Source: an uncultured Candidatus Saccharibacteria bacterium (GTDB lineage Bacteria > Patescibacteriota > Minisyncoccia > 2-02-FULL-40-12 > GWA2-44-9). From it: DNA of 64,000 nucleotides. Made by a program: the position numbers and the translations under genes. Numbering within the stretch: the stretch's first letter is position 1; the number at the start of each line of letters is the position of its first letter. The stretch spans positions 1,816-65,815 of the forward strand of contig CAYUJB010000001.1 in the NCBI GenBank assembly GCA_964444955.1, read 5' to 3'. This document shows positions 9,318-43,615 of this stretch, in pieces. Under the pieces are notes generated by a model. That model saw only the letters and a list, made by a program, of their open reading frames with translations, had not been told where the DNA came from and searched no databases.

Positions 9318-11408
9318 ATGCGTCGTCCCAAGAAGTCATGGCGTGTCTGGCTTACCCACGGATCCACCCTTTTGGCGTGGATTGTCACGCTGGGCGTTAT
9401 TGGTGTGTCTCTCTTTGTTTTGTACGCAAAAAGTCAGGTTCCTGACCCAGAATCCATCGTGTCGCGACAGATCAAAGAGTCCACCAAGATCTACGACCGA
9501 ACAGGCACTATCGTGCTCTACGACATCTACGACGAAGAGCGCCGTACGGTTGTTGATTTTGCGCATATCAGCGACAGCATCAAGAAAGCAACCCTTGCCA
9601 CGGAGGATAGTCGCTTCTACGAGCACAAAGGATTTGACCTCCGCGGTATCGCTCGATCGCTCCTCAACAATATCGAACAGGGGTTTGGTTCTGGTGGTGG
9701 TTCAACACTGACCCAGCAGTTGGTGGGTAATGCGCTTGTTGGTCGACAGAAAAATCTTACCCGTAAAGTGCAGGAGCTTATTTTAGCCATCGAAGTTGAG
9801 CAACGATACACCAAGGATCAAATCTTTGAGATGTATCTCAATCAAGTCCCCTATGGGGATAATGCGTACGGTGTTGAGGCGGCAAGCCAAACGTATTTCG
9901 GTGTTCCTGCTGCCGAGCTCTCGGTGGCGCAAGGTGCGTTATTGGCATCGCTCGTACAGCGACCATCGTACTACTCACCCTACGGCACACACCTCGACGA
10001 GCTCTTGGGACGCAAAGACTATGTCCTAGGGCGGATGCGCGATCTTGGATACATCTCTGATGATGCCCACCAATCAGCAAAAAACGAACAGCTCGTATTT
10101 AAAGAGAAGTCGAGCATTCTCGCTGCTCCCCATTTCGTGCTTATGGCGAGAGACTACGTTACGCAAAAGTATGGCAAAGACATTGTCTCATCGGGTGGGT
10201 TTAAGATTATTACCACCCTTGATGCTGACCTCCAAAAGAAAGCGGAGGAGCTCGTAGCTAAGTATGCAAAGATAAATAAAGAAAAATACAAAGCGTCGAA
10301 TGCATCACTCACGGCCATCGATCCAAAAACCGGCGAAGTGCGCGCGCTCGTTGGTTCTGCAAATTACTTCGATATCGAAAATGAAGGAAATTTTAATGTG
10401 GCTCTCGCACAGCGACAGCCGGGTTCAGCATTCAAACCATTTGCATATGCAGCCGCGTTTGCTAATGGATACACCGATAGCACCATCTTGTGGGATGTGA
10501 AGACCGAGTTTAATCCACTCTGCGCTCCCGACGCATCACAAACTAGAACTACGTCGGGACAAGCGTGTTATCACCCCAAAAACTACAGTAACACCTACTC
10601 TGGTCCGGTGACAATGCGCCAATCTATAGCTCGATCACTTAATACCACCTCGGTTAAAACGCTCTATCTCGCAGGTGTTGATACCGTTATTGATCTTGCG
10701 ACGCGCATGGGAATCACCACACTCACTGACCGATCTCGCTTTGGCCTCTCTTTGGTGCTCGGTGGCGCTGAAGTGCGCCCTATTGATTTAGTTTCTGCGT
10801 ACGGTGTGTTTGCAAATGATGGCATTCGGGTTCCGTGGGGTTTTATCCAAAAGATAGAGCTCAACAACGGGTCGGTGCTCGAAGAAAGAATACCGGCGCC
10901 TGAGCGTGTCCTCGGCGCCCAAACGGCAAGGCTTATGAATGACGTGCTTAGTGATAATAATGCTCGTGCTTCGGTTTTTGGCGTTAATAATTCTCTGTAC
11001 CTCCCCGGACGAGACGTTGCAGCAAAAACAGGTACCACCCAAGAAAATCGTGATGCGTGGGTAGTGGGCTACACCCCCTCTCTTAGCGTTGGTGTCTGGG
11101 TAGGGAACAATCGCAACCAGTCGATGACCGCTGCGGGTGCCGGTATAAGCGCCGCAGGACCTCTGTGGAACGCTTTTATGTCCGCAGCCTTGTCTGGTAC
11201 CTCACCTGAGTATTTCACCAGCCCCGACCCTGTGAGCACGTCGAAGCCAGTTCTCAATGGTGTGCCATCTGACCACACAATCCTCTACTCTGTTTCACGG
11301 GATAACCCCCTTGGCCCAGAGCCCTCTCAACCAGAAACAGATCCTCAGTTCAAGAATTGGGAGTGGGCGGTCCAACAACGGGTTGTGCCCGTGGGAGTTA
11401 GCGAGTAA
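9318..11408 (+). CDS. class A penicillin-binding protein (bifunctional transglycosylase/transpeptidase, PBP1A-type)
   Basis: N-terminal TM anchor. GT51 motifs EDSRFYEHKGFD and RQKNLTRKVQE. Transpeptidase motifs SAFKPF (SxxK), SxN and KTGTT. Confidence 0.85.
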   Translation: MRRPKKSWRVWLTHGSTLLAWIVTLGVIGVSLFVLYAKSQVPDPESIVSRQIKESTKIYDRTGTIVLYDIYDEERRTVVDFAHISDSIKKATLATEDSRFYEHKGFDLRGIARSLLNNIEQGFGSGGGSTLTQQLVGNALVGRQKNLTRKVQELILAIEVEQRYTKDQIFEMYLNQVPYGDNAYGVEAASQTYFGVPAAELSVAQGALLASLVQRPSYYSPYGTHLDELLGRKDYVLGRMRDLGYISDDAHQSAKNEQLVFKEKSSILAAPHFVLMARDYVTQKYGKDIVSSGGFKIITTLDADLQKKAEELVAKYAKINKEKYKASNASLTAIDPKTGEVRALVGSANYFDIENEGNFNVALAQRQPGSAFKPFAYAAAFANGYTDSTILWDVKTEFNPLCAPDASQTRTTSGQACYHPKNYSNTYSGPVTMRQSIARSLNTTSVKTLYLAGVDTVIDLATRMGITTLTDRSRFGLSLVLGGAEVRPIDLVSAYGVFANDGIRVPWGFIQKIELNNGSVLEERIPAPERVLGAQTARLMNDVLSDNNARASVFGVNNSLYLPGRDVAAKTGTTQENRDAWVVGYTPSLSVGVWVGNNRNQSMTAAGAGISAAGPLWNAFMSAALSGTSPEYFTSPDPVSTSKPVLNGVPSDHTILYSVSRDNPLGPEPSQPETDPQFKNWEWAVQQRVVPVGVSE

Positions 11409-11679
11409 TAATACGATCTACGCGCACATTTCGTGCGGTAAGGTAGGCACGAATCTCTCGCGCATTGAGTGTGAGCTCCCCGGCGAGTGTTTTTGAGGGA
11501 GTAGAAATAATCAAGAGACGATCATCTGTTTGATATCGGACACCCACACTCATTAAAGCGTCGGGGTAGTTTTCCTGAAGATACCCCTGCACCGCTTGTC
11601 GCACCAAAACACCAACACTGCTTTGTGTGGTAAGGGTCTCTTGTCGTTGTGTGAGAGGGCCTTTGATGGACTGAAACAT
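11398..11679 (-). CDS. DUF721/DciA-like small protein (possible replicative helicase loader)
   Basis: 93 aa, immediately downstream of dnaN. The C-terminal LLIISTPSKTLAGELTLNAREIRAYL pattern resembles DUF721 (SAWAQEL-type) proteins. The assignment is from pattern memory only. Confidence 0.4.
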   Translation of the reverse strand: MFQSIKGPLTQRQETLTTQSSVGVLVRQAVQGYLQENYPDALMSVGVRYQTDDRLLIISTPSKTLAGELTLNAREIRAYLTARNVRVDRIITR

Positions 11680-11690
11680 AGTGCGTACGA

Positions 11691-12782
11691 TTAACCCCGT
11701 AGTGGCATTATCAAATACACAATGCGCGACTCGTCGTCATTGGGACGTAAAACGAAGGGGCTCCCCTTTCCTGTATACTCCAGTACAACCTTTTCGCTCG
11801 GTAGTATCTTGAGTCCCTCAAGAAAATAGTGGTAATTCATGGAGACCTCGAATGACTCTCCCTTCATATTCGACTCGACCCCGGCGGTCGCTTCGCCCTT
11901 ACTTGAGTTCTTTCCGCTTATGCGAAGTTCATGTTCATCGCACTCAATTTTAATATCTGAAATACTCGAGGAAAAAAGTGCGGCCACTTTCGCTGCATTC
12001 TCGACTTCATCACGCCGCACCAAAACTCGCGTGAGCGAATGCTCCGGTATTATCTTTCGATAATCAGGATACTTTCCGTCGATAAGACGCGAGATAACCT
12101 CAAACTCGTCGTGGGTAAATGCTATTTGGTTTTCCGCTATCCGGATCTGCAACCGACCCTCGATATCGCTAAGAATCCTTCCTAGTTCAGTGATGGTTCC
12201 TCGAGGAATGATGGCACTACCTCCGTGCGCAAACGCGCCTGGAATCCGTTGCTCGGCAAGGCGAAATATATCAGTTGCCGCCATTGTCATACTATCCTCC
12301 TCGAAGCGCAGAAACGCACCTGCGAGCTCTGGTCGCGAGTCAGAGGCAGCAATAGAGTCTGCTGTCGACGTTAGCAGGCTTCGAAAGTCCTGGGCTGCAA
12401 CATCAAACTCGTTCCCTCCGCTAATCTTGGGGATGATTGGATACTCCCCTGCGTCAAAACAGAGTATGGTGGTTCTATATTTCCCAGCTCTCACGGTTAG
12501 TGTATTTTGCTTCAGCTCGAGTCCGATATTCTCCTCTGAAACACCCCGAATAAAGTCGGAGAGAGTTTTTGCAGGAACAGCAATGCGTCCCTCGTCTTCA
12601 ACTTTCGCTCCAATGAGAGAACTCACTCCAATCTCTAGATTGGTTGCGGAAACACGAAGGCGCCCATTCTCAGTCTCAAGTAAGATATTACTCAGAATGG
12701 GGAGTGTTGCGCTTCGGGATGTGACTCGCTCAACGAACCCCAACACTCGCTGAAGCCTGTCTTTGTGTACGGTGATCTTCAT
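11691..12782 (-). CDS. dnaN: DNA polymerase III beta sliding clamp
   Basis: 363 aa with a three-domain clamp pattern (MKITVHKDRLQRVLGFVERV...). Sits directly downstream of dnaA across oriC. Confidence 0.9.
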   Translation of the reverse strand: MKITVHKDRLQRVLGFVERVTSRSATLPILSNILLETENGRLRVSATNLEIGVSSLIGAKVEDEGRIAVPAKTLSDFIRGVSEENIGLELKQNTLTVRAGKYRTTILCFDAGEYPIIPKISGGNEFDVAAQDFRSLLTSTADSIAASDSRPELAGAFLRFEEDSMTMAATDIFRLAEQRIPGAFAHGGSAIIPRGTITELGRILSDIEGRLQIRIAENQIAFTHDEFEVISRLIDGKYPDYRKIIPEHSLTRVLVRRDEVENAAKVAALFSSSISDIKIECDEHELRISGKNSSKGEATAGVESNMKGESFEVSMNYHYFLEGLKILPSEKVVLEYTGKGSPFVLRPNDDESRIVYLIMPLRG

Positions 12783-13015
12783 CGGGATAGTATATTAAGA
12801 GGATATATAATACTACTACTTACTACTAAGGGTGTGGATATGGGGATAGAGGATTGAAAATACTGCTGGGTAGCGACGGAAGTGCTGTGGGGCTATGTGG
12901 ATAGTGTGGGGATAGTTGTGGGGTATCTGTGGAAGAATTTCGCCGGAGTGGCCTATGGTCTGATTTTATGCGAGATCATCAACACACCTATCCCACTCTT
13001 CTGCACAGGTTGCGG
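12783..13015. promoter_or_regulatory. chromosomal replication origin (oriC): DnaA-box cluster plus AT-rich unwinding element
   Basis: At least six TGTGGATA-like boxes lie within 110 bp (TGTGGATAT 12832, TGTGGGGCT, TGTGGATAG, TGTGGGGAT, TGTGGGGTA, TGTGGAAGA). An AT-rich stretch at 12788-12828 (tatattaagaggatatataatactactac) precedes them. The location between dnaN and dnaA is classical. Confidence 0.6.
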
Positions 13016-14398
13016 CTAGTGTTCGAATGAATCATAAATGCGCTGACGAATCATAGTAAGCTCATTTTTGAGGGGCTCATCGACAGCCTCTTCTCGCCGG
13101 ATTTTTTCACACGCGTGAATAACCGTAGAGTGATCGCGTCCCCCAAGCTTCTGACCGATTTCAGGAAATGAGAGCTTAATTTCTTCGCGGAGGAGATACA
13201 TAGCAATTTGCCGTGGCTTCACTACTTCTTTTTTACGGCTGCGCTTCGTGAGGTCAGCGGCTGGGATATTAAAGAAATCAGCGACTGTTTTAAGAATAAC
13301 CTGCGGAGATGTTTTCCGGTACGGAACGGCAAGGTATGCGTTGAGGATGTTTTTAACCTCCTTCGTGTCCGGGATACGATTATAGACTTGTGATATCGCA
13401 ATTACACGATTGAGCGCTCCCTCGAGCTCACGAACATTTTTTTGAATATGGGTAGCAATATAGGACAACACGTCGTCGTTGAGTGCACAGCCCTTTTCCT
13501 GACTTTTTGTCTTCAAGATCGCGAGCCGCGTTTCATAATCAGGCATATTAATCTCGGCGAGCATCCCCCCTTCAAGGCGGGACTGGAGTCGCTCGGTGAT
13601 TGCCGGGATCGCTTTGGGTGGCCGATCCGACGTGCATACCACCTGTTTGTTGCGGTTGTGGAGTTCATTGAAGATAGTGAAAACGATCTCCTGCGTCTTG
13701 TCTTTGCCCGCGATGTACTGGATATCGTCGATGATAAGGAGATCAAGTTTTGAGTACTGAGTCTTCACATCTTCTGCGGTGCGGTTCTTGATGGATTCGA
13801 CGATAGTTGCGGTGAGTTTTTCCCCCGTCGTGTAGAGCACTTTCTTATCCGACCACTGTTGGAGCACCTGGTTGCCGATAGATTGGATGAGATGTGTCTT
13901 CCCAAGCCCCACTCCCCCATACACAAAGAGGGGGTTATAGTTTTTCCCAGGGCTACTCGCGACCGCCTGGGAACATGCAAAGGTAAATTCATTAGAGCCA
14001 CCAACAATAAAGGTATCAAACGAGTATTTTTTATTGAGGTGAGTTACCTTATCAACGTCCTGACTCTGGTCATATAAGACTTGTTCTTGAAATTCCTTTT
14101 CACTTATTATTTTTGAGATATCCTGGCGCGTTGGTTCTAGTTTTGGTTGTCCGACGATATACTTCACTTCACGTATCTCGTTGGAGAGCTTGCGGATTGA
14201 GGTGAGGATTTGGCGATTGTATTTACTTTCGAGCCACTCTTTCACAAATCCATTCGGAACACTTACCGTTACGGAGTTTTGATCTCGCGTGACGACGTTG
14301 GTGTTTTTAAACCACGTCGTGAAATGGGCGCGAGAAAGTGAAAGTTCCATTTCTCCTAAAACTGTTTTCCAAATATCGTCAGGGGTAACAGAGGTCAT
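13016..14398 (-). CDS. dnaA: chromosomal replication initiator DnaA
   Basis: Walker A GGVGLGKTHL, sensor motifs, and a C-terminal DnaA-box-binding HTH (VIHACEKI). Start set to ATG 14398 (MTSVTPDDIWKTVLGEM). The ORF-track start at 14575 adds 59 unconserved residues. Confidence 0.9.
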   Translation of the reverse strand: MTSVTPDDIWKTVLGEMELSLSRAHFTTWFKNTNVVTRDQNSVTVSVPNGFVKEWLESKYNRQILTSIRKLSNEIREVKYIVGQPKLEPTRQDISKIISEKEFQEQVLYDQSQDVDKVTHLNKKYSFDTFIVGGSNEFTFACSQAVASSPGKNYNPLFVYGGVGLGKTHLIQSIGNQVLQQWSDKKVLYTTGEKLTATIVESIKNRTAEDVKTQYSKLDLLIIDDIQYIAGKDKTQEIVFTIFNELHNRNKQVVCTSDRPPKAIPAITERLQSRLEGGMLAEINMPDYETRLAILKTKSQEKGCALNDDVLSYIATHIQKNVRELEGALNRVIAISQVYNRIPDTKEVKNILNAYLAVPYRKTSPQVILKTVADFFNIPAADLTKRSRKKEVVKPRQIAMYLLREEIKLSFPEIGQKLGGRDHSTVIHACEKIRREEAVDEPLKNELTMIRQRIYDSFEH

Positions 14399-14586
14399 TG
14401 ATGGAGGGGTGTGCACGTGTCGCCAGTATACAGTCCTGTGAAACTCTCTCAAGCGAGCCAACATCACGAATACGTTGATAGAGTGTTTATAACAGGTGGA
14501 AAACTGTGGGTAAATATTGACTCGCACCATCAAACATAGTAGACTGCTCAGTGAAGCGTCGAAGAACGCACACATAAAAAGAACGT

Positions 14587-41598: not shown

Positions 41599-42156
41599 TT
41601 ACCGCGTTGCCTGCACGATCGTTATGGTCTTGCCGGCAATCATTCCCGTGACCGTTCGAGCAGGTCCCGAGTTTCCCGATATGAAGAAGTTCGTACTTCC
41701 CTTCCCCAACCCAGACGCCCCACTCGTGATGATTACCCATCCTGGGTTTGAGTTCAGGCTTGCGGTCCACGGACAGTCGGCTCTCGACGCAGTTACCTGG
41801 AGGACTCCGGGCCCTCCTTGATATCCGATTGTGAGCGTAGGATCAACCTTGAGCGTACACGCAAGTGTCGGCGTCGGCGTTGGTGGTGCTGGGGGTGGCG
41901 TCGACTGTGGAGGCGCCACGGTCGGCGTAGGAGCCGGCGGCCGAGGCGTCGGCTGTGGAGGCGCCGGCGTAGGCGCAACCGTCGGAGGTCGCGGCGTCGG
42001 GGTTGCTGTCACTGACGGCCCTGATGGTGTACCGCAGCCGTCCTTGTCGCACCCGCATCCGGGCACGACGACAACGACACAAAGAACGATGATGAGACTG
42101 ATTGTTCGGAATAGACGTGAGATCACGGGCTTCCCTCCTGGGTTGTTAAAAAGCAT
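41599..42156 (-). CDS. secreted protein with a Pro/Thr-rich linker and a C-terminal beta-rich domain
   Basis: N-terminal TM/signal (ISLIIVLCVVVVVP), a roughly 60-aa PT-rich linker (PTPRPPTVAPTPAPPQPTPRPPAPTPT), and a 100-aa C-terminal domain. Confidence 0.5.
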   Translation of the reverse strand: MLFNNPGGKPVISRLFRTISLIIVLCVVVVVPGCGCDKDGCGTPSGPSVTATPTPRPPTVAPTPAPPQPTPRPPAPTPTVAPPQSTPPPAPPTPTPTLACTLKVDPTLTIGYQGGPGVLQVTASRADCPWTASLNSNPGWVIITSGASGLGKGSTNFFISGNSGPARTVTGMIAGKTITIVQATR

Positions 42157-42245: not shown

Positions 42246-42274
42246 TTGACAAAAAATAATCAGTAGTATATACT
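42246..42274 (+). promoter_or_regulatory. candidate promoter (-35 TTGACA, 17-bp spacer, -10 TATACT) in an AT-rich leader
   Basis: TTGACA at 42246-42251 and TATACT at 42269-42274, roughly 60 nt upstream of the surface-protein gene at 42335. Confidence 0.3.
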
Positions 42275-42334
42275 ATATATACCTAAGAAAAGTACTTGTG
42301 CGCAGGGGCGTATTAATGTAGAAAACTAACTATT

Positions 42335-43615
42335 ATGAACATAAAAACCTCGTTTTTGCAGGGTTTCCGAGTATCAACCGTTATGGGACTTTTGAGCCTT
42401 CTTTTACTGTCTCCGCTCATGTTCGTGCCCCAAGCTAACGCCGACACTCTTTTGGTGTCTGCTGGGCTGACCGCTTCCCCTGGTACGATATGTATCGGCC
42501 AGTCGACGCATTTGAACTGGACATCTACGAATGCCACAAGCATCGTCATCAGCCCAGGGGTTGGCTCTGTTAACCCGTACGGAGGATTGGATGTGTATCC
42601 TACTCAGACTACGACATATACCATCACCGCGAGCAACACTACGGGCGGATATGGTTCATCGAACACCGGATCGGTTACGGTGTACGTCACTGGTTCTTGC
42701 GGCACCCCCACCCCTACTCCGTACAACAACGCACTCTACTGCTCGGCTACCTACTCCTACGCAAACTCTGGTGACCTCGTTTCCTTCAACGCATGGGGTG
42801 GTAACGGTACCTTCTCGTGGAATGCGACCGATGGTACCCCTTCGTACGGTTACGGTTCTTCCTTTTCGTCCCGCTTCTACAACCCGTCCTGGTACTCGGT
42901 GAGCCGTATGGTGACGGTCACGAGTGGCTATCAGACTGCCAACTGCAATGTGACCATCTATGCCGGTGGTACGACATGGACACCAACCCCAACGCCCTGG
43001 GTGAATCCCGCAGTTGATCTTGCGTTAACACAGGTTGGCCGCAACGTGACCCGTGGGCAGAGTGGTGAGTATGCTTCTTTGACGGCTCGCGGTGGCGACA
43101 CACTCGACCTGATCGTGCGCACGCGCTCGGTGAACAACTCGTACCTCTACAACACCTTTGTGACTGAGCAGCTCCCTACCGGTTTCAACTACATCCCTGG
43201 TTCTACCACGGTCAATGGGTATGTTGTTGCCGATGGTATCACCTCGACCGGCATCAATGTGGGTACTGTTGCTCCGTATGCACAGACAACCATCAAGTTC
43301 TCGGTTCGCGTTGATGGTGCCTACGTTCCTACCTGGGGCACTACGACCGTCAACAGCATCGCACAGGCACGCGCCGACAATGTTGTGACGCGCTCGGTAT
43401 CCTTGCCGATTACCCTCGGATCAAACGCGAGTATCGCAAACATTTCTTCCGTGAAGACCGGTCCTACCGACTCGCTCTGGCTCGCCCTCATGGTTGCCTT
43501 TTTGGCAACGGGTGCTTACGCCGTGTACCTGCGCACTGATCGTTTCGGTCGCCGCATGGCGCTCGCCGAAGTCGCTACACTCGCTCGCACCTCCGGTCCG
43601 AACTTTGTGAAGTAA
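42335..43615 (+). CDS. cell-surface protein with an Ig-like domain, a DUF11-like domain and a C-terminal VKTGP-TM sorting signal
   Basis: Signal peptide. Cys-bracketed Ig-like domain (CSATYSYANSGD...ANCNVTIYAG). DUF11-like block (RGGDTLDLIVRTRSVNN...EQLPTGFNYIPGSTTVNGY). C-terminus SSVKTGPTD, then TM LWLALMVAFLATGAYAVYL, then RTDRFGRR. Confidence 0.6.
   Translation: MNIKTSFLQGFRVSTVMGLLSLLLLSPLMFVPQANADTLLVSAGLTASPGTICIGQSTHLNWTSTNATSIVISPGVGSVNPYGGLDVYPTQTTTYTITASNTTGGYGSSNTGSVTVYVTGSCGTPTPTPYNNALYCSATYSYANSGDLVSFNAWGGNGTFSWNATDGTPSYGYGSSFSSRFYNPSWYSVSRMVTVTSGYQTANCNVTIYAGGTTWTPTPTPWVNPAVDLALTQVGRNVTRGQSGEYASLTARGGDTLDLIVRTRSVNNSYLYNTFVTEQLPTGFNYIPGSTTVNGYVVADGITSTGINVGTVAPYAQTTIKFSVRVDGAYVPTWGTTTVNSIAQARADNVVTRSVSLPITLGSNASIANISSVKTGPTDSLWLALMVAFLATGAYAVYLRTDRFGRRMALAEVATLARTSGPNFVK

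Follow-up and report, generated by a model that had tools for sequence, protein, structure and literature searches.

A candidate replication origin with a Bacillus-type unwinding module in the dnaA-dnaN spacer of an uncultivated Patescibacteria lineage

The window, i.e. the whole 64-kb stretch of DNA that was analysed, carries dnaA and dnaN on its minus strand. The dnaN gene (11691-12782) encodes a sliding clamp of 363 aa (TIGR00663, E = 4.1e-77). For dnaA (13016-14398, 460 aa; TIGR00362, E = 4.6e-150) the mechanical ORF extends to 14575, the TIGR00362 profile begins at ORF residue 69 and the ATG at 14398 is the true start. The best PDB match of this DnaA is B. subtilis DnaA (8BTG). On the plus strand, rpmH, rnpA, yidD and yidC follow from 14587 and are divergent from dnaA and dnaN, so that the gene context at the locus is rnpA-rpmH / dnaA-dnaN. 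The spacer between the two minus-strand genes, 12783-13015, is the entire 233-bp gap from the dnaA stop codon (13016-13018) to the dnaN ATG (12782). These are exactly the coordinates which the first-pass annotation had assigned to it, and an independent gene caller returned the same DnaA of 460 aa and the same gap of 233 bp. A Shine-Dalgarno-like GGAGG is absent 5' of the start codons of dnaN (12783-12800) and dnaA (14399-14415). Before both genes CCTC(C/T) is found on the coding strand, and at dnaN an AT-rich DNA unwinding element (DUE) reaches the ATG. Directly downstream of dnaN lies a 93-aa ORF (11398-11679, minus strand) without NCBIfam match; this is a common position for recF or for a small S4-like or DUF721 gene.

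The dnaA-dnaN spacer is base-for-base identical in two other independent public assemblies and is therefore not an assembly artefact. The closest DnaA sequences were obtained from Patescibacteria/CPR metagenome-assembled genomes. The organism belongs to the Patescibacteria/CPR and is related to Candidatus Yanofskybacteria: within the genome collection the best match is a MAG of this group (L001, 82%), and three metagenome contigs (L081, L153 and L084) encode a DnaA that is 95-96% identical to that of the window. The order rpmH, dnaA, dnaN is kept in 72 Patescibacteria loci of the genome collection, where the dnaA-dnaN spacer has a median length of 227 bp. In most related Patescibacteria this spacer has a G+C content of about 25%, and the window as a whole has about 52%. 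The lineage of the window is thus unusually GC-rich within its group, which makes an AT-rich DUE all the more conspicuous. The spacer was also scanned for a sigma-70-like promoter and a terminator, neither of which was detected, and it gave no match in an Rfam search. Promoters, terminators and Rfam RNAs therefore offer no alternative explanation for it.

The density of 9-mers with at most two mismatches to the DnaA-box consensus TTATCCACA has its maximum for the whole window in this spacer. Two of the sites have no more than one mismatch, namely ATATCCACA (12833-12841) and CTATCCACA (12896-12904). Altogether at least seven box-like 9-mers are found at 12833-12936, where an oriC is expected to hold at least three DnaA boxes with a mean spacing below 100 bp. 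On the plus strand, TGTGG cores start at 12833, 12886, 12896, 12905, 12917 and 12928. All six have the same orientation and fall within 104 bp, the last five at a spacing of 9-12 bp, next to a stretch with 77% A+T. This bears out the first-pass annotation, which had described at least six DnaA-box-like 9-mers in about 110 bp beside an AT-rich element. In 200 Markov-simulated sequences of 64 kb the largest same-strand cluster of TGTGG cores had 2-3 members, and the next best cluster of the real window has 3.

Read on the minus strand from dnaA towards dnaN, the spacer consists of a distal box-like site, an array of five sites, a gap, a box pair, a CCC cluster and triplet repeats within AT-rich DNA, which runs up to the dnaN ATG. 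The upstream box of the pair, CTATCCCCA (12841-12849, minus strand), has two mismatches to TTATCCACA and a TCCCCA core of the W-box type. The orthologous site reads ATCCCCA in L082, L083 and L001 and ATCCACA in L153. The downstream box, ATATCCACA (minus strand), belongs to an invariant alignment block and has one mismatch to the consensus. Both boxes overlap by one base, which results in a tandem pair of 17 bp (12849-12833). Between this pair and the triplets lies the GC cluster CCC (12830-12832, minus strand). The DnaA-trio-like repeats (12810-12829) read 5'-A TAC TAC TAC T TAC TAC TAA-3' on the plus strand. Seen outward from the boxes, on this strand with its distal 5' end, the sequence corresponds to 3'-AAT CAT CAT (T) CAT CAT CAT-5', i.e. 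three triplets in frame beside the GC cluster followed by a break of 1 nt. On the minus strand the CCC is followed by TTAGTAGTAAGTAGTAGTAT, then by further AT-rich DNA and the dnaN ATG. The triplet element AGTAAGTAGTAGTATTATAT is identical in L153, and GTAGTAAGTA, including the 1-nt frame break, is kept in L153, L082 and L083.

The AT-rich DUE (12786-12829) overlaps the triplets and abuts the dnaN start codon. It ranks in the top 0.08% of all 40-bp windows for A+T, at an A+T content of about 48% for the whole window, and it provides the AT-rich unwinding element that is expected adjacent to the boxes of an oriC. Among the 40-mers of the 64 kb, the one at 12788-12827 ranks second in duplex instability, with a dG of -40.1 compared to a mean of -58.2 (sd 4.2), which is more than 4 sd away. 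The least stable 40-mer (42251-42290) is found in a divergent intergenic region between the genes at 41599-42156 (minus strand) and 42335-43615 (plus strand). No site with up to one mismatch to the DnaA-box consensus was detected within 42251-42290.

The arrangement of these elements was compared with published rules for the basal unwinding system (BUS; Richardson 2016/2019, Pelliciari 2021). The relaxed rule (PMC8287927) asks for a box with at most two mismatches, located at most 16 bp from the trios and facing them, and for 3'-NAN-5' triplets, three or more in succession, on the strand that has its 5' end away from the box. Here, the distance to the first triplet is 11 bp for CTATCCCCA (two mismatches) and 3 bp for ATATCCACA (one mismatch), and 3'-AAT CAT CAT-5' has the form of the required triplets. 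Since 35/167 (21%) of the box-like sites in the window pass this rule, it is too permissive and weak on its own, and a stricter composite pattern was used, in which a box pair and a GC cluster had to be followed by three or more in-frame triplets and an AT-rich tail. A scan of both strands gave a single match in the window (12849, minus strand), and 60 simulated sequences gave none. A strict form of the triplet rule, 3'-[G/A]A[T/A]-5' after a GC cluster, is quoted in PMC7561715. The cluster is present in the window and the first triplet, AAT, fits this form, whereas the next two are CAT. The triplets of L153 and L082 begin with GAT, and L001, the closest relative in the genome collection, has only two triplets in frame.

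A close known counterpart is the BUS of B. subtilis incC, which comprises boxes 6/7, a GC cluster, DnaA-trios and an AT-rich 27-mer, and which agrees with the window in gene context and in the order of its elements towards dnaN. On the equivalent strand the B. subtilis module reads TTATCCACA-AATCCACA-GGCC-CTACTATTACTTCTACTA (Table S1 of PMC8287927, Pelliciari et al. 2021; PMC10201434). Both modules start with a 17-bp pair of boxes sharing one base, CTATCCCCATATCCACA in the window and TTATCCACAAATCCACA for boxes 6/7 of B. subtilis (PMC8287927). In both, a GC cluster of 3-4 bp follows (CCC in the window, GGCC in B. subtilis), then triplets, carried by the strand that has its 5' end distally, and an AT-rich region. 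However, unlike in B. subtilis, the lead box of the window has a TCCCCA core, and the triplets in frame are only three, AAT CAT CAT, where B. subtilis has GAT GAT AAT. At the equivalent place, C. difficile carries CACC TAC TAC TAT TAC TAC TAT (PMC7561715). The DUE and the trio-like repeats of the window are confined to the spacer downstream of dnaA, as in C. difficile.

Comparison with relatives suggests that this module is the part of the spacer which is under conservation. Between the window and L153, whose DnaA is 96% identical, the 85 nt of the spacer proximal to dnaN are 80% identical, whereas the distal 148 nt reach only 54% at a shuffle level of 49%. In six relatives with DnaA identities from 96% down to 67%, an invariant block is made up of box pair, GC cluster and first triplets. 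The unwinding module thus appears to be the only conserved part of the dnaA-dnaN spacer in these relatives, and the distal boxes seem to evolve quickly. The module is also found in distant Patescibacteria, among many others in L045 (TTATCCCCATATCCACA-AGGC-TTATTATTACTATTAG), L054, L058, L065, L067 and L080. When 87 spacers were anchored on a strong box, a T was observed at every third base from +14, which leaves a spacer of about 12 bp. A triplet periodicity starting at +14 is the published spacing of the BUS and its canonical arrangement (PMC8287927). By sequence, the Bacillus-type unwinding module therefore seems to extend to Patescibacteria. In the same publication, a BUS was reported in 85% of predicted origins.

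GC skew was analysed within the 64-kb window. The cumulative G-C minimum of the window is at 12635, within 150 bp of the spacer. Skew blocks to the left of it have a mean of -31.6 per kb and those to the right of it a mean of +10.6 per kb (Mann-Whitney P = 0.0007), and a minimum as deep as this one arises in 0.65% of block shuffles (P = 0.0065). The sign change beside the spacer is thus as expected for the origin which the first-pass annotation had placed here, as local evidence only. The skew is noisy in the 64-kb window and partly follows gene orientation, and it is therefore consistent with an origin and not decisive. The gene-strand bias around the spacer is weak and gives no help. In curated genomes, CPR included, skew inflections were found near dnaA together with a small repeat array, and for curated CPR genomes it is routine to set the start near dnaA, where the skew inflects (PMC7111523).

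Taken with the boxes, the DUE and the synteny, the module and the skew make the spacer the best candidate for oriC in the window. We consider it very likely that the dnaA-dnaN spacer serves as the origin of chromosome replication, or at least as its unwinding part, with a Bacillus-type BUS. This agrees with the first-pass annotation as to the place of the origin. The annotation had also contrasted this place with one upstream of dnaA, and the position is not an unusual one: a dnaA-dnaN spacer that serves as origin or as its unwinding half is an established arrangement, exemplified by B. subtilis incC and C. difficile oriC2 (PMC4285127, PMC7561715). A literature search for oriC or DnaA boxes in Patescibacteria found no paper dissecting such an origin. 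Together with the known arrangement of the spacer, this makes the locus one more case of a known design; it does not represent a new type of origin.

Alternatively, the spacer might only be a DnaA-binding site for regulation or titration, e.g. for the expression of dnaN, and the origin might lie elsewhere, as in E. coli. DnaA boxes do double as transcriptional operators, and no more than 64 kb of the genome are visible, with a noisy skew. However, the spacer is without a sigma-70-like promoter. In addition, the extremely unstable AT-rich stretch comes right after the box pair, the GC cluster and the triplets, which is the geometry needed for unwinding, and the skew minimum of the window lies less than 150 bp away. 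The conservation of the module across the phylum, in which the ancestral rpmH-dnaA-dnaN context is kept, also speaks against a purely regulatory role, which we regard as very improbable.

What is observed is how the candidate origin is built, that it is statistically unique and conserved, and that the skew switches locally; from this, DnaA binding, unwinding and helicase loading can be proposed as follows. Domain IV of DnaA would bind the 17-bp pair CTATCCCCA/ATATCCACA. An ATP-DnaA oligomer nucleated at this pair would then extend over the CCC onto the plus strand, which has its 5' end on the side away from the boxes, and would engage the triplets 3'-AAT CAT CAT-5' on that strand. In consequence the adjoining unstable stretch at 12786-12829 would be stretched and melted, and the helicase would be loaded there. 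The five phased, mostly degenerate boxes at 12886-12936 and the distal site in reverse orientation probably recruit DnaA with low affinity and aid the formation of the oligomer. For an uncultivated lineage of CPR/Patescibacteria this model of the origin is concrete and can be tested, and it places box pair, triplets and DUE at exact positions. Such a model could be useful for defining genome start points, for metagenome replication-rate estimates and for the design of replicating vectors for CPR bacteria. The understanding of how origins work is left unchanged by it; a side interest might lie in the lead box with its TCCCCA core and in the changed residues for single-strand contact.

The five sites of the array (12886-12936, minus strand) are TCTTCCACA, TACCCCACA, ATCCCCACA/CTATCCCCA, CTATCCACA and AGCCCCACA. 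At a spacing of 9-12 bp they are helically phased, and a gap of 36 bp separates them (12936-12886) from the box pair (12849-12833). Likely, this is a low-affinity region for DnaA oligomerisation. The left half of E. coli oriC (R1, tau1, R5M, tau2, I1, I2) likewise consists of phased and mostly degenerate boxes of the same orientation leading towards the DUE (PMC5742627). The context of E. coli oriC is gidA-mioC, unlike the dnaA-dnaN context of the window, and an IHF site was not identified in the window. Also unlike the E. coli left half, the array of the window is not conserved even in L153 with its 96%-identical DnaA. Further towards dnaA, near its stop codon, lies a weak distal box-like site of opposite orientation, CTATCCCAC (12988-12996, plus strand). 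A related element, GGGATAG(G/C)TGTGTTG / TCTGGATAA, is found in L153, L083 and L001, again close to the stop codon of dnaA. By analogy, this reverse-oriented element may be a distal looping box like that of B. subtilis incC.

Within the phased array, a tandem repeat with a period of 11-12 is found at 12899-12932. A recent private duplication seems to have produced it, as the relative with the 96%-identical DnaA has different boxes in both orientations. Three exact CCCCACA heptamers (TGTGGGG on the plus strand) occur in this repeat within 40 bp. Altered DnaA-box specificity is known in lineages such as Thermotoga or cyanobacteria. From the variant TGTGGGGNT, i.e. ANCCCCACA, the first-pass annotation had concluded that the preference of DnaA for its boxes is shifted, so that half of the origin boxes would represent a new consensus. 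This reading draws on the three heptamers, on T435S, a replacement which the window's clade carries in its recognition helix (other Patescibacteria keep T435), and on the cores CCCACA and TCCCCA, which are commoner across the phylum than the control cores ACCACA, GCCACA, TCCGCA and TCCTCA. The evidence against it makes a shifted preference very unlikely. The base contacts known from E. coli are R399, P423, D433, H434, T435 and H439 (PMC7561715, PMC5742627). When these domain IV residues were compared, as the annotation had proposed, R399, P423, D433, H434 and H439 all proved to be conserved and only T435 was found changed, to Ser. In L153 the DNA-binding helix-turn-helix is identical to that of the window including the Ser, yet its spacer has 0 copies of CCCCACA, and 0 copies were also counted in the spacers of close relatives. 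The heptamers belong to a private repeat, in the half of the spacer where the identity between close relatives is at random level. In 123 spacers across the phylum, canonical TCCACA is still the commonest core with 126 copies, followed by TCCCCA with 53, and CCCCACA has 10. For a lineage-specific DnaA box, changed contact residues and a variant that dominates orthologous origins would be expected, and neither pattern is seen. Furthermore, degenerate boxes of low affinity are normal in origins, such as the W-box TCCCCA of Caulobacter (PMC4285127).

Recurrent across the phylum is another variant, T(T/A)TCCCCA, often as the lead box of the unwinding module. A TCCCCA core is present in 23/70 spacers compared to 1.4 expected, and its 53 copies share the strand bias of the 126 copies of TCCACA; the control cores TCCGCA and TCCTCA are rare. 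A link between T435S and the use of TCCCCA was considered and rejected, since this core is about equally frequent in lineages with Ser (2/4) and with Thr (13/31). In Caulobacter crescentus Cori, the very weak W-boxes have TCCCCA as their consensus and are used beside stronger canonical boxes (PMC4285127), so that TCCCCA belongs to a known class of weak box. The hexamer core is the same and differs from TCCACA at the same position. Unlike in Caulobacter, TCCCCA stands here and in many Patescibacteria within the full 9-mer T(T/A)TCCCCA and often takes the place of the lead box.

In B. subtilis, the residues that capture the bases of the DnaA-trios, in contact with their G and A, are N187, R202 and E228 (PMC10721633). 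In the DnaA of the window these are A, K and I, so that the capture residues of the B. subtilis BUS are replaced at all three positions. Among 81 Patescibacteria DnaA proteins, position 187 is N, S or G, position 202 is mostly K, and position 228 is E except in the window's clade. In this clade (L001-L003, L081) N187 is changed to A or S, R202 to K and E228 to I or V. Recognition of the single strand may therefore differ from that in B. subtilis. These changes seem to lower the claim of identical chemistry and not that of the same architecture. It is conceivable that the code by which the initiator of the window's clade reads its origin has drifted together with the origin, which would make the locus a natural variant of BUS recognition. 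R202K, E228I/V, N187A/S and T435S, the conserved CAT triplets of the expected strand with perfect 5'-TAG TAG TAA-3' opposite to them, and the W-type lead box T(T/A)TCCCCA, which is widespread in Patescibacteria, point in this direction, and we rate such a drift as unlikely. The less ordinary features, i.e. a TCCCCA core in the lead box, CAT instead of GAT triplets and N187A/R202K/E228I, would allow for a modest variant of the recognition code, an unlikely but testable reading.

At 12810-12829, the strand opposite to the expected trio strand carries perfect 5'-TAG TAG TAA-3' repeats, i.e. the trio consensus on the 'wrong' strand. Top-strand triplets are TAG/GTA in the window and CTA/TAC in Firmicutes. 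Canonical 5'-TAG-3' trios on the top strand were rejected as the default reading, because in B. subtilis, E. coli and C. difficile the trios are placed on the strand that has its 5' end distally and read TGTGGATAA. In the phylum-wide profile the periodic base on the top strand is T, which also argues against top-strand TAG trios. The longest run of NTN or NAN was tried as a test for the strand and was uninformative, since repeats of the (TAA)n type satisfy both. An arrangement with swapped trio strands would be the less likely version of a drifted recognition code.

DnaA-box-like sites are also found on the other side of dnaA. For the rpmH-dnaA spacer the first-pass annotation had counted one such site. 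One is indeed the number with at most one mismatch, TTACCCACA (14505-14513), and as a count of all sites it is too low: TTTTCCACC (14495-14503), TTATAAACA (14484-14492) and CTATCAACG (14473-14481) follow in the same orientation. Together they form an array of four sites (14473-14513, minus strand), which are spaced 10-11 bp and helically phased. The array is conserved in L081, L084, L083, L082, L001 and L090. It is located between two divergent promoter-like sites, TTGAGA-16-TATACT for dnaA (14425-14452, minus strand; 10/12 matches) and TTGACT-17-TAGACT for rpmH (14517-14545, plus strand). Both promoter-like sites are conserved in relatives, and the whole block is kept in six of them.

By its sequence and position, this array fits autoregulation of dnaA, a Firmicutes-like bipartite origin, or both. 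In the bipartite case, which would refine the main model and not replace it, DnaA would loop the array at 14473-14513 to the dnaA-dnaN spacer, and unwinding would take place in the latter. Such a design was described for B. subtilis, C. difficile and H. pylori (PMC4285127, PMC7561715), and the bipartite origin of C. difficile/Firmicutes likewise has boxes on both sides of dnaA, with oriC1 upstream and oriC2, which includes trio and DUE, in the dnaA-dnaN spacer. The window shows the corresponding layout, with two box clusters flanking dnaA (14473-14513 and 12833-12936) and a DUE-grade AT-rich stretch in the downstream spacer only, and the four upstream sites are conserved in six relatives. Across the phylum both spacers are enriched in boxes: in the 72 Patescibacteria loci 6.4 boxes per kb were counted in the dnaA-dnaN spacer and 4.8 in the upstream spacer, compared to 0.46 in the dnaA coding sequence. 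However, the upstream boxes lie directly upstream of the conserved dnaA promoter-like site, and plain autoregulation of dnaA explains them equally well. We therefore propose the bipartite origin only tentatively, as a possible extension of the unwinding module in the dnaA-dnaN spacer. The array probably autoregulates the dnaA promoter, and it may loop to the dnaA-dnaN spacer as in bipartite origins. Among relatives, the upstream block is more conserved than the distal half of the dnaA-dnaN spacer.
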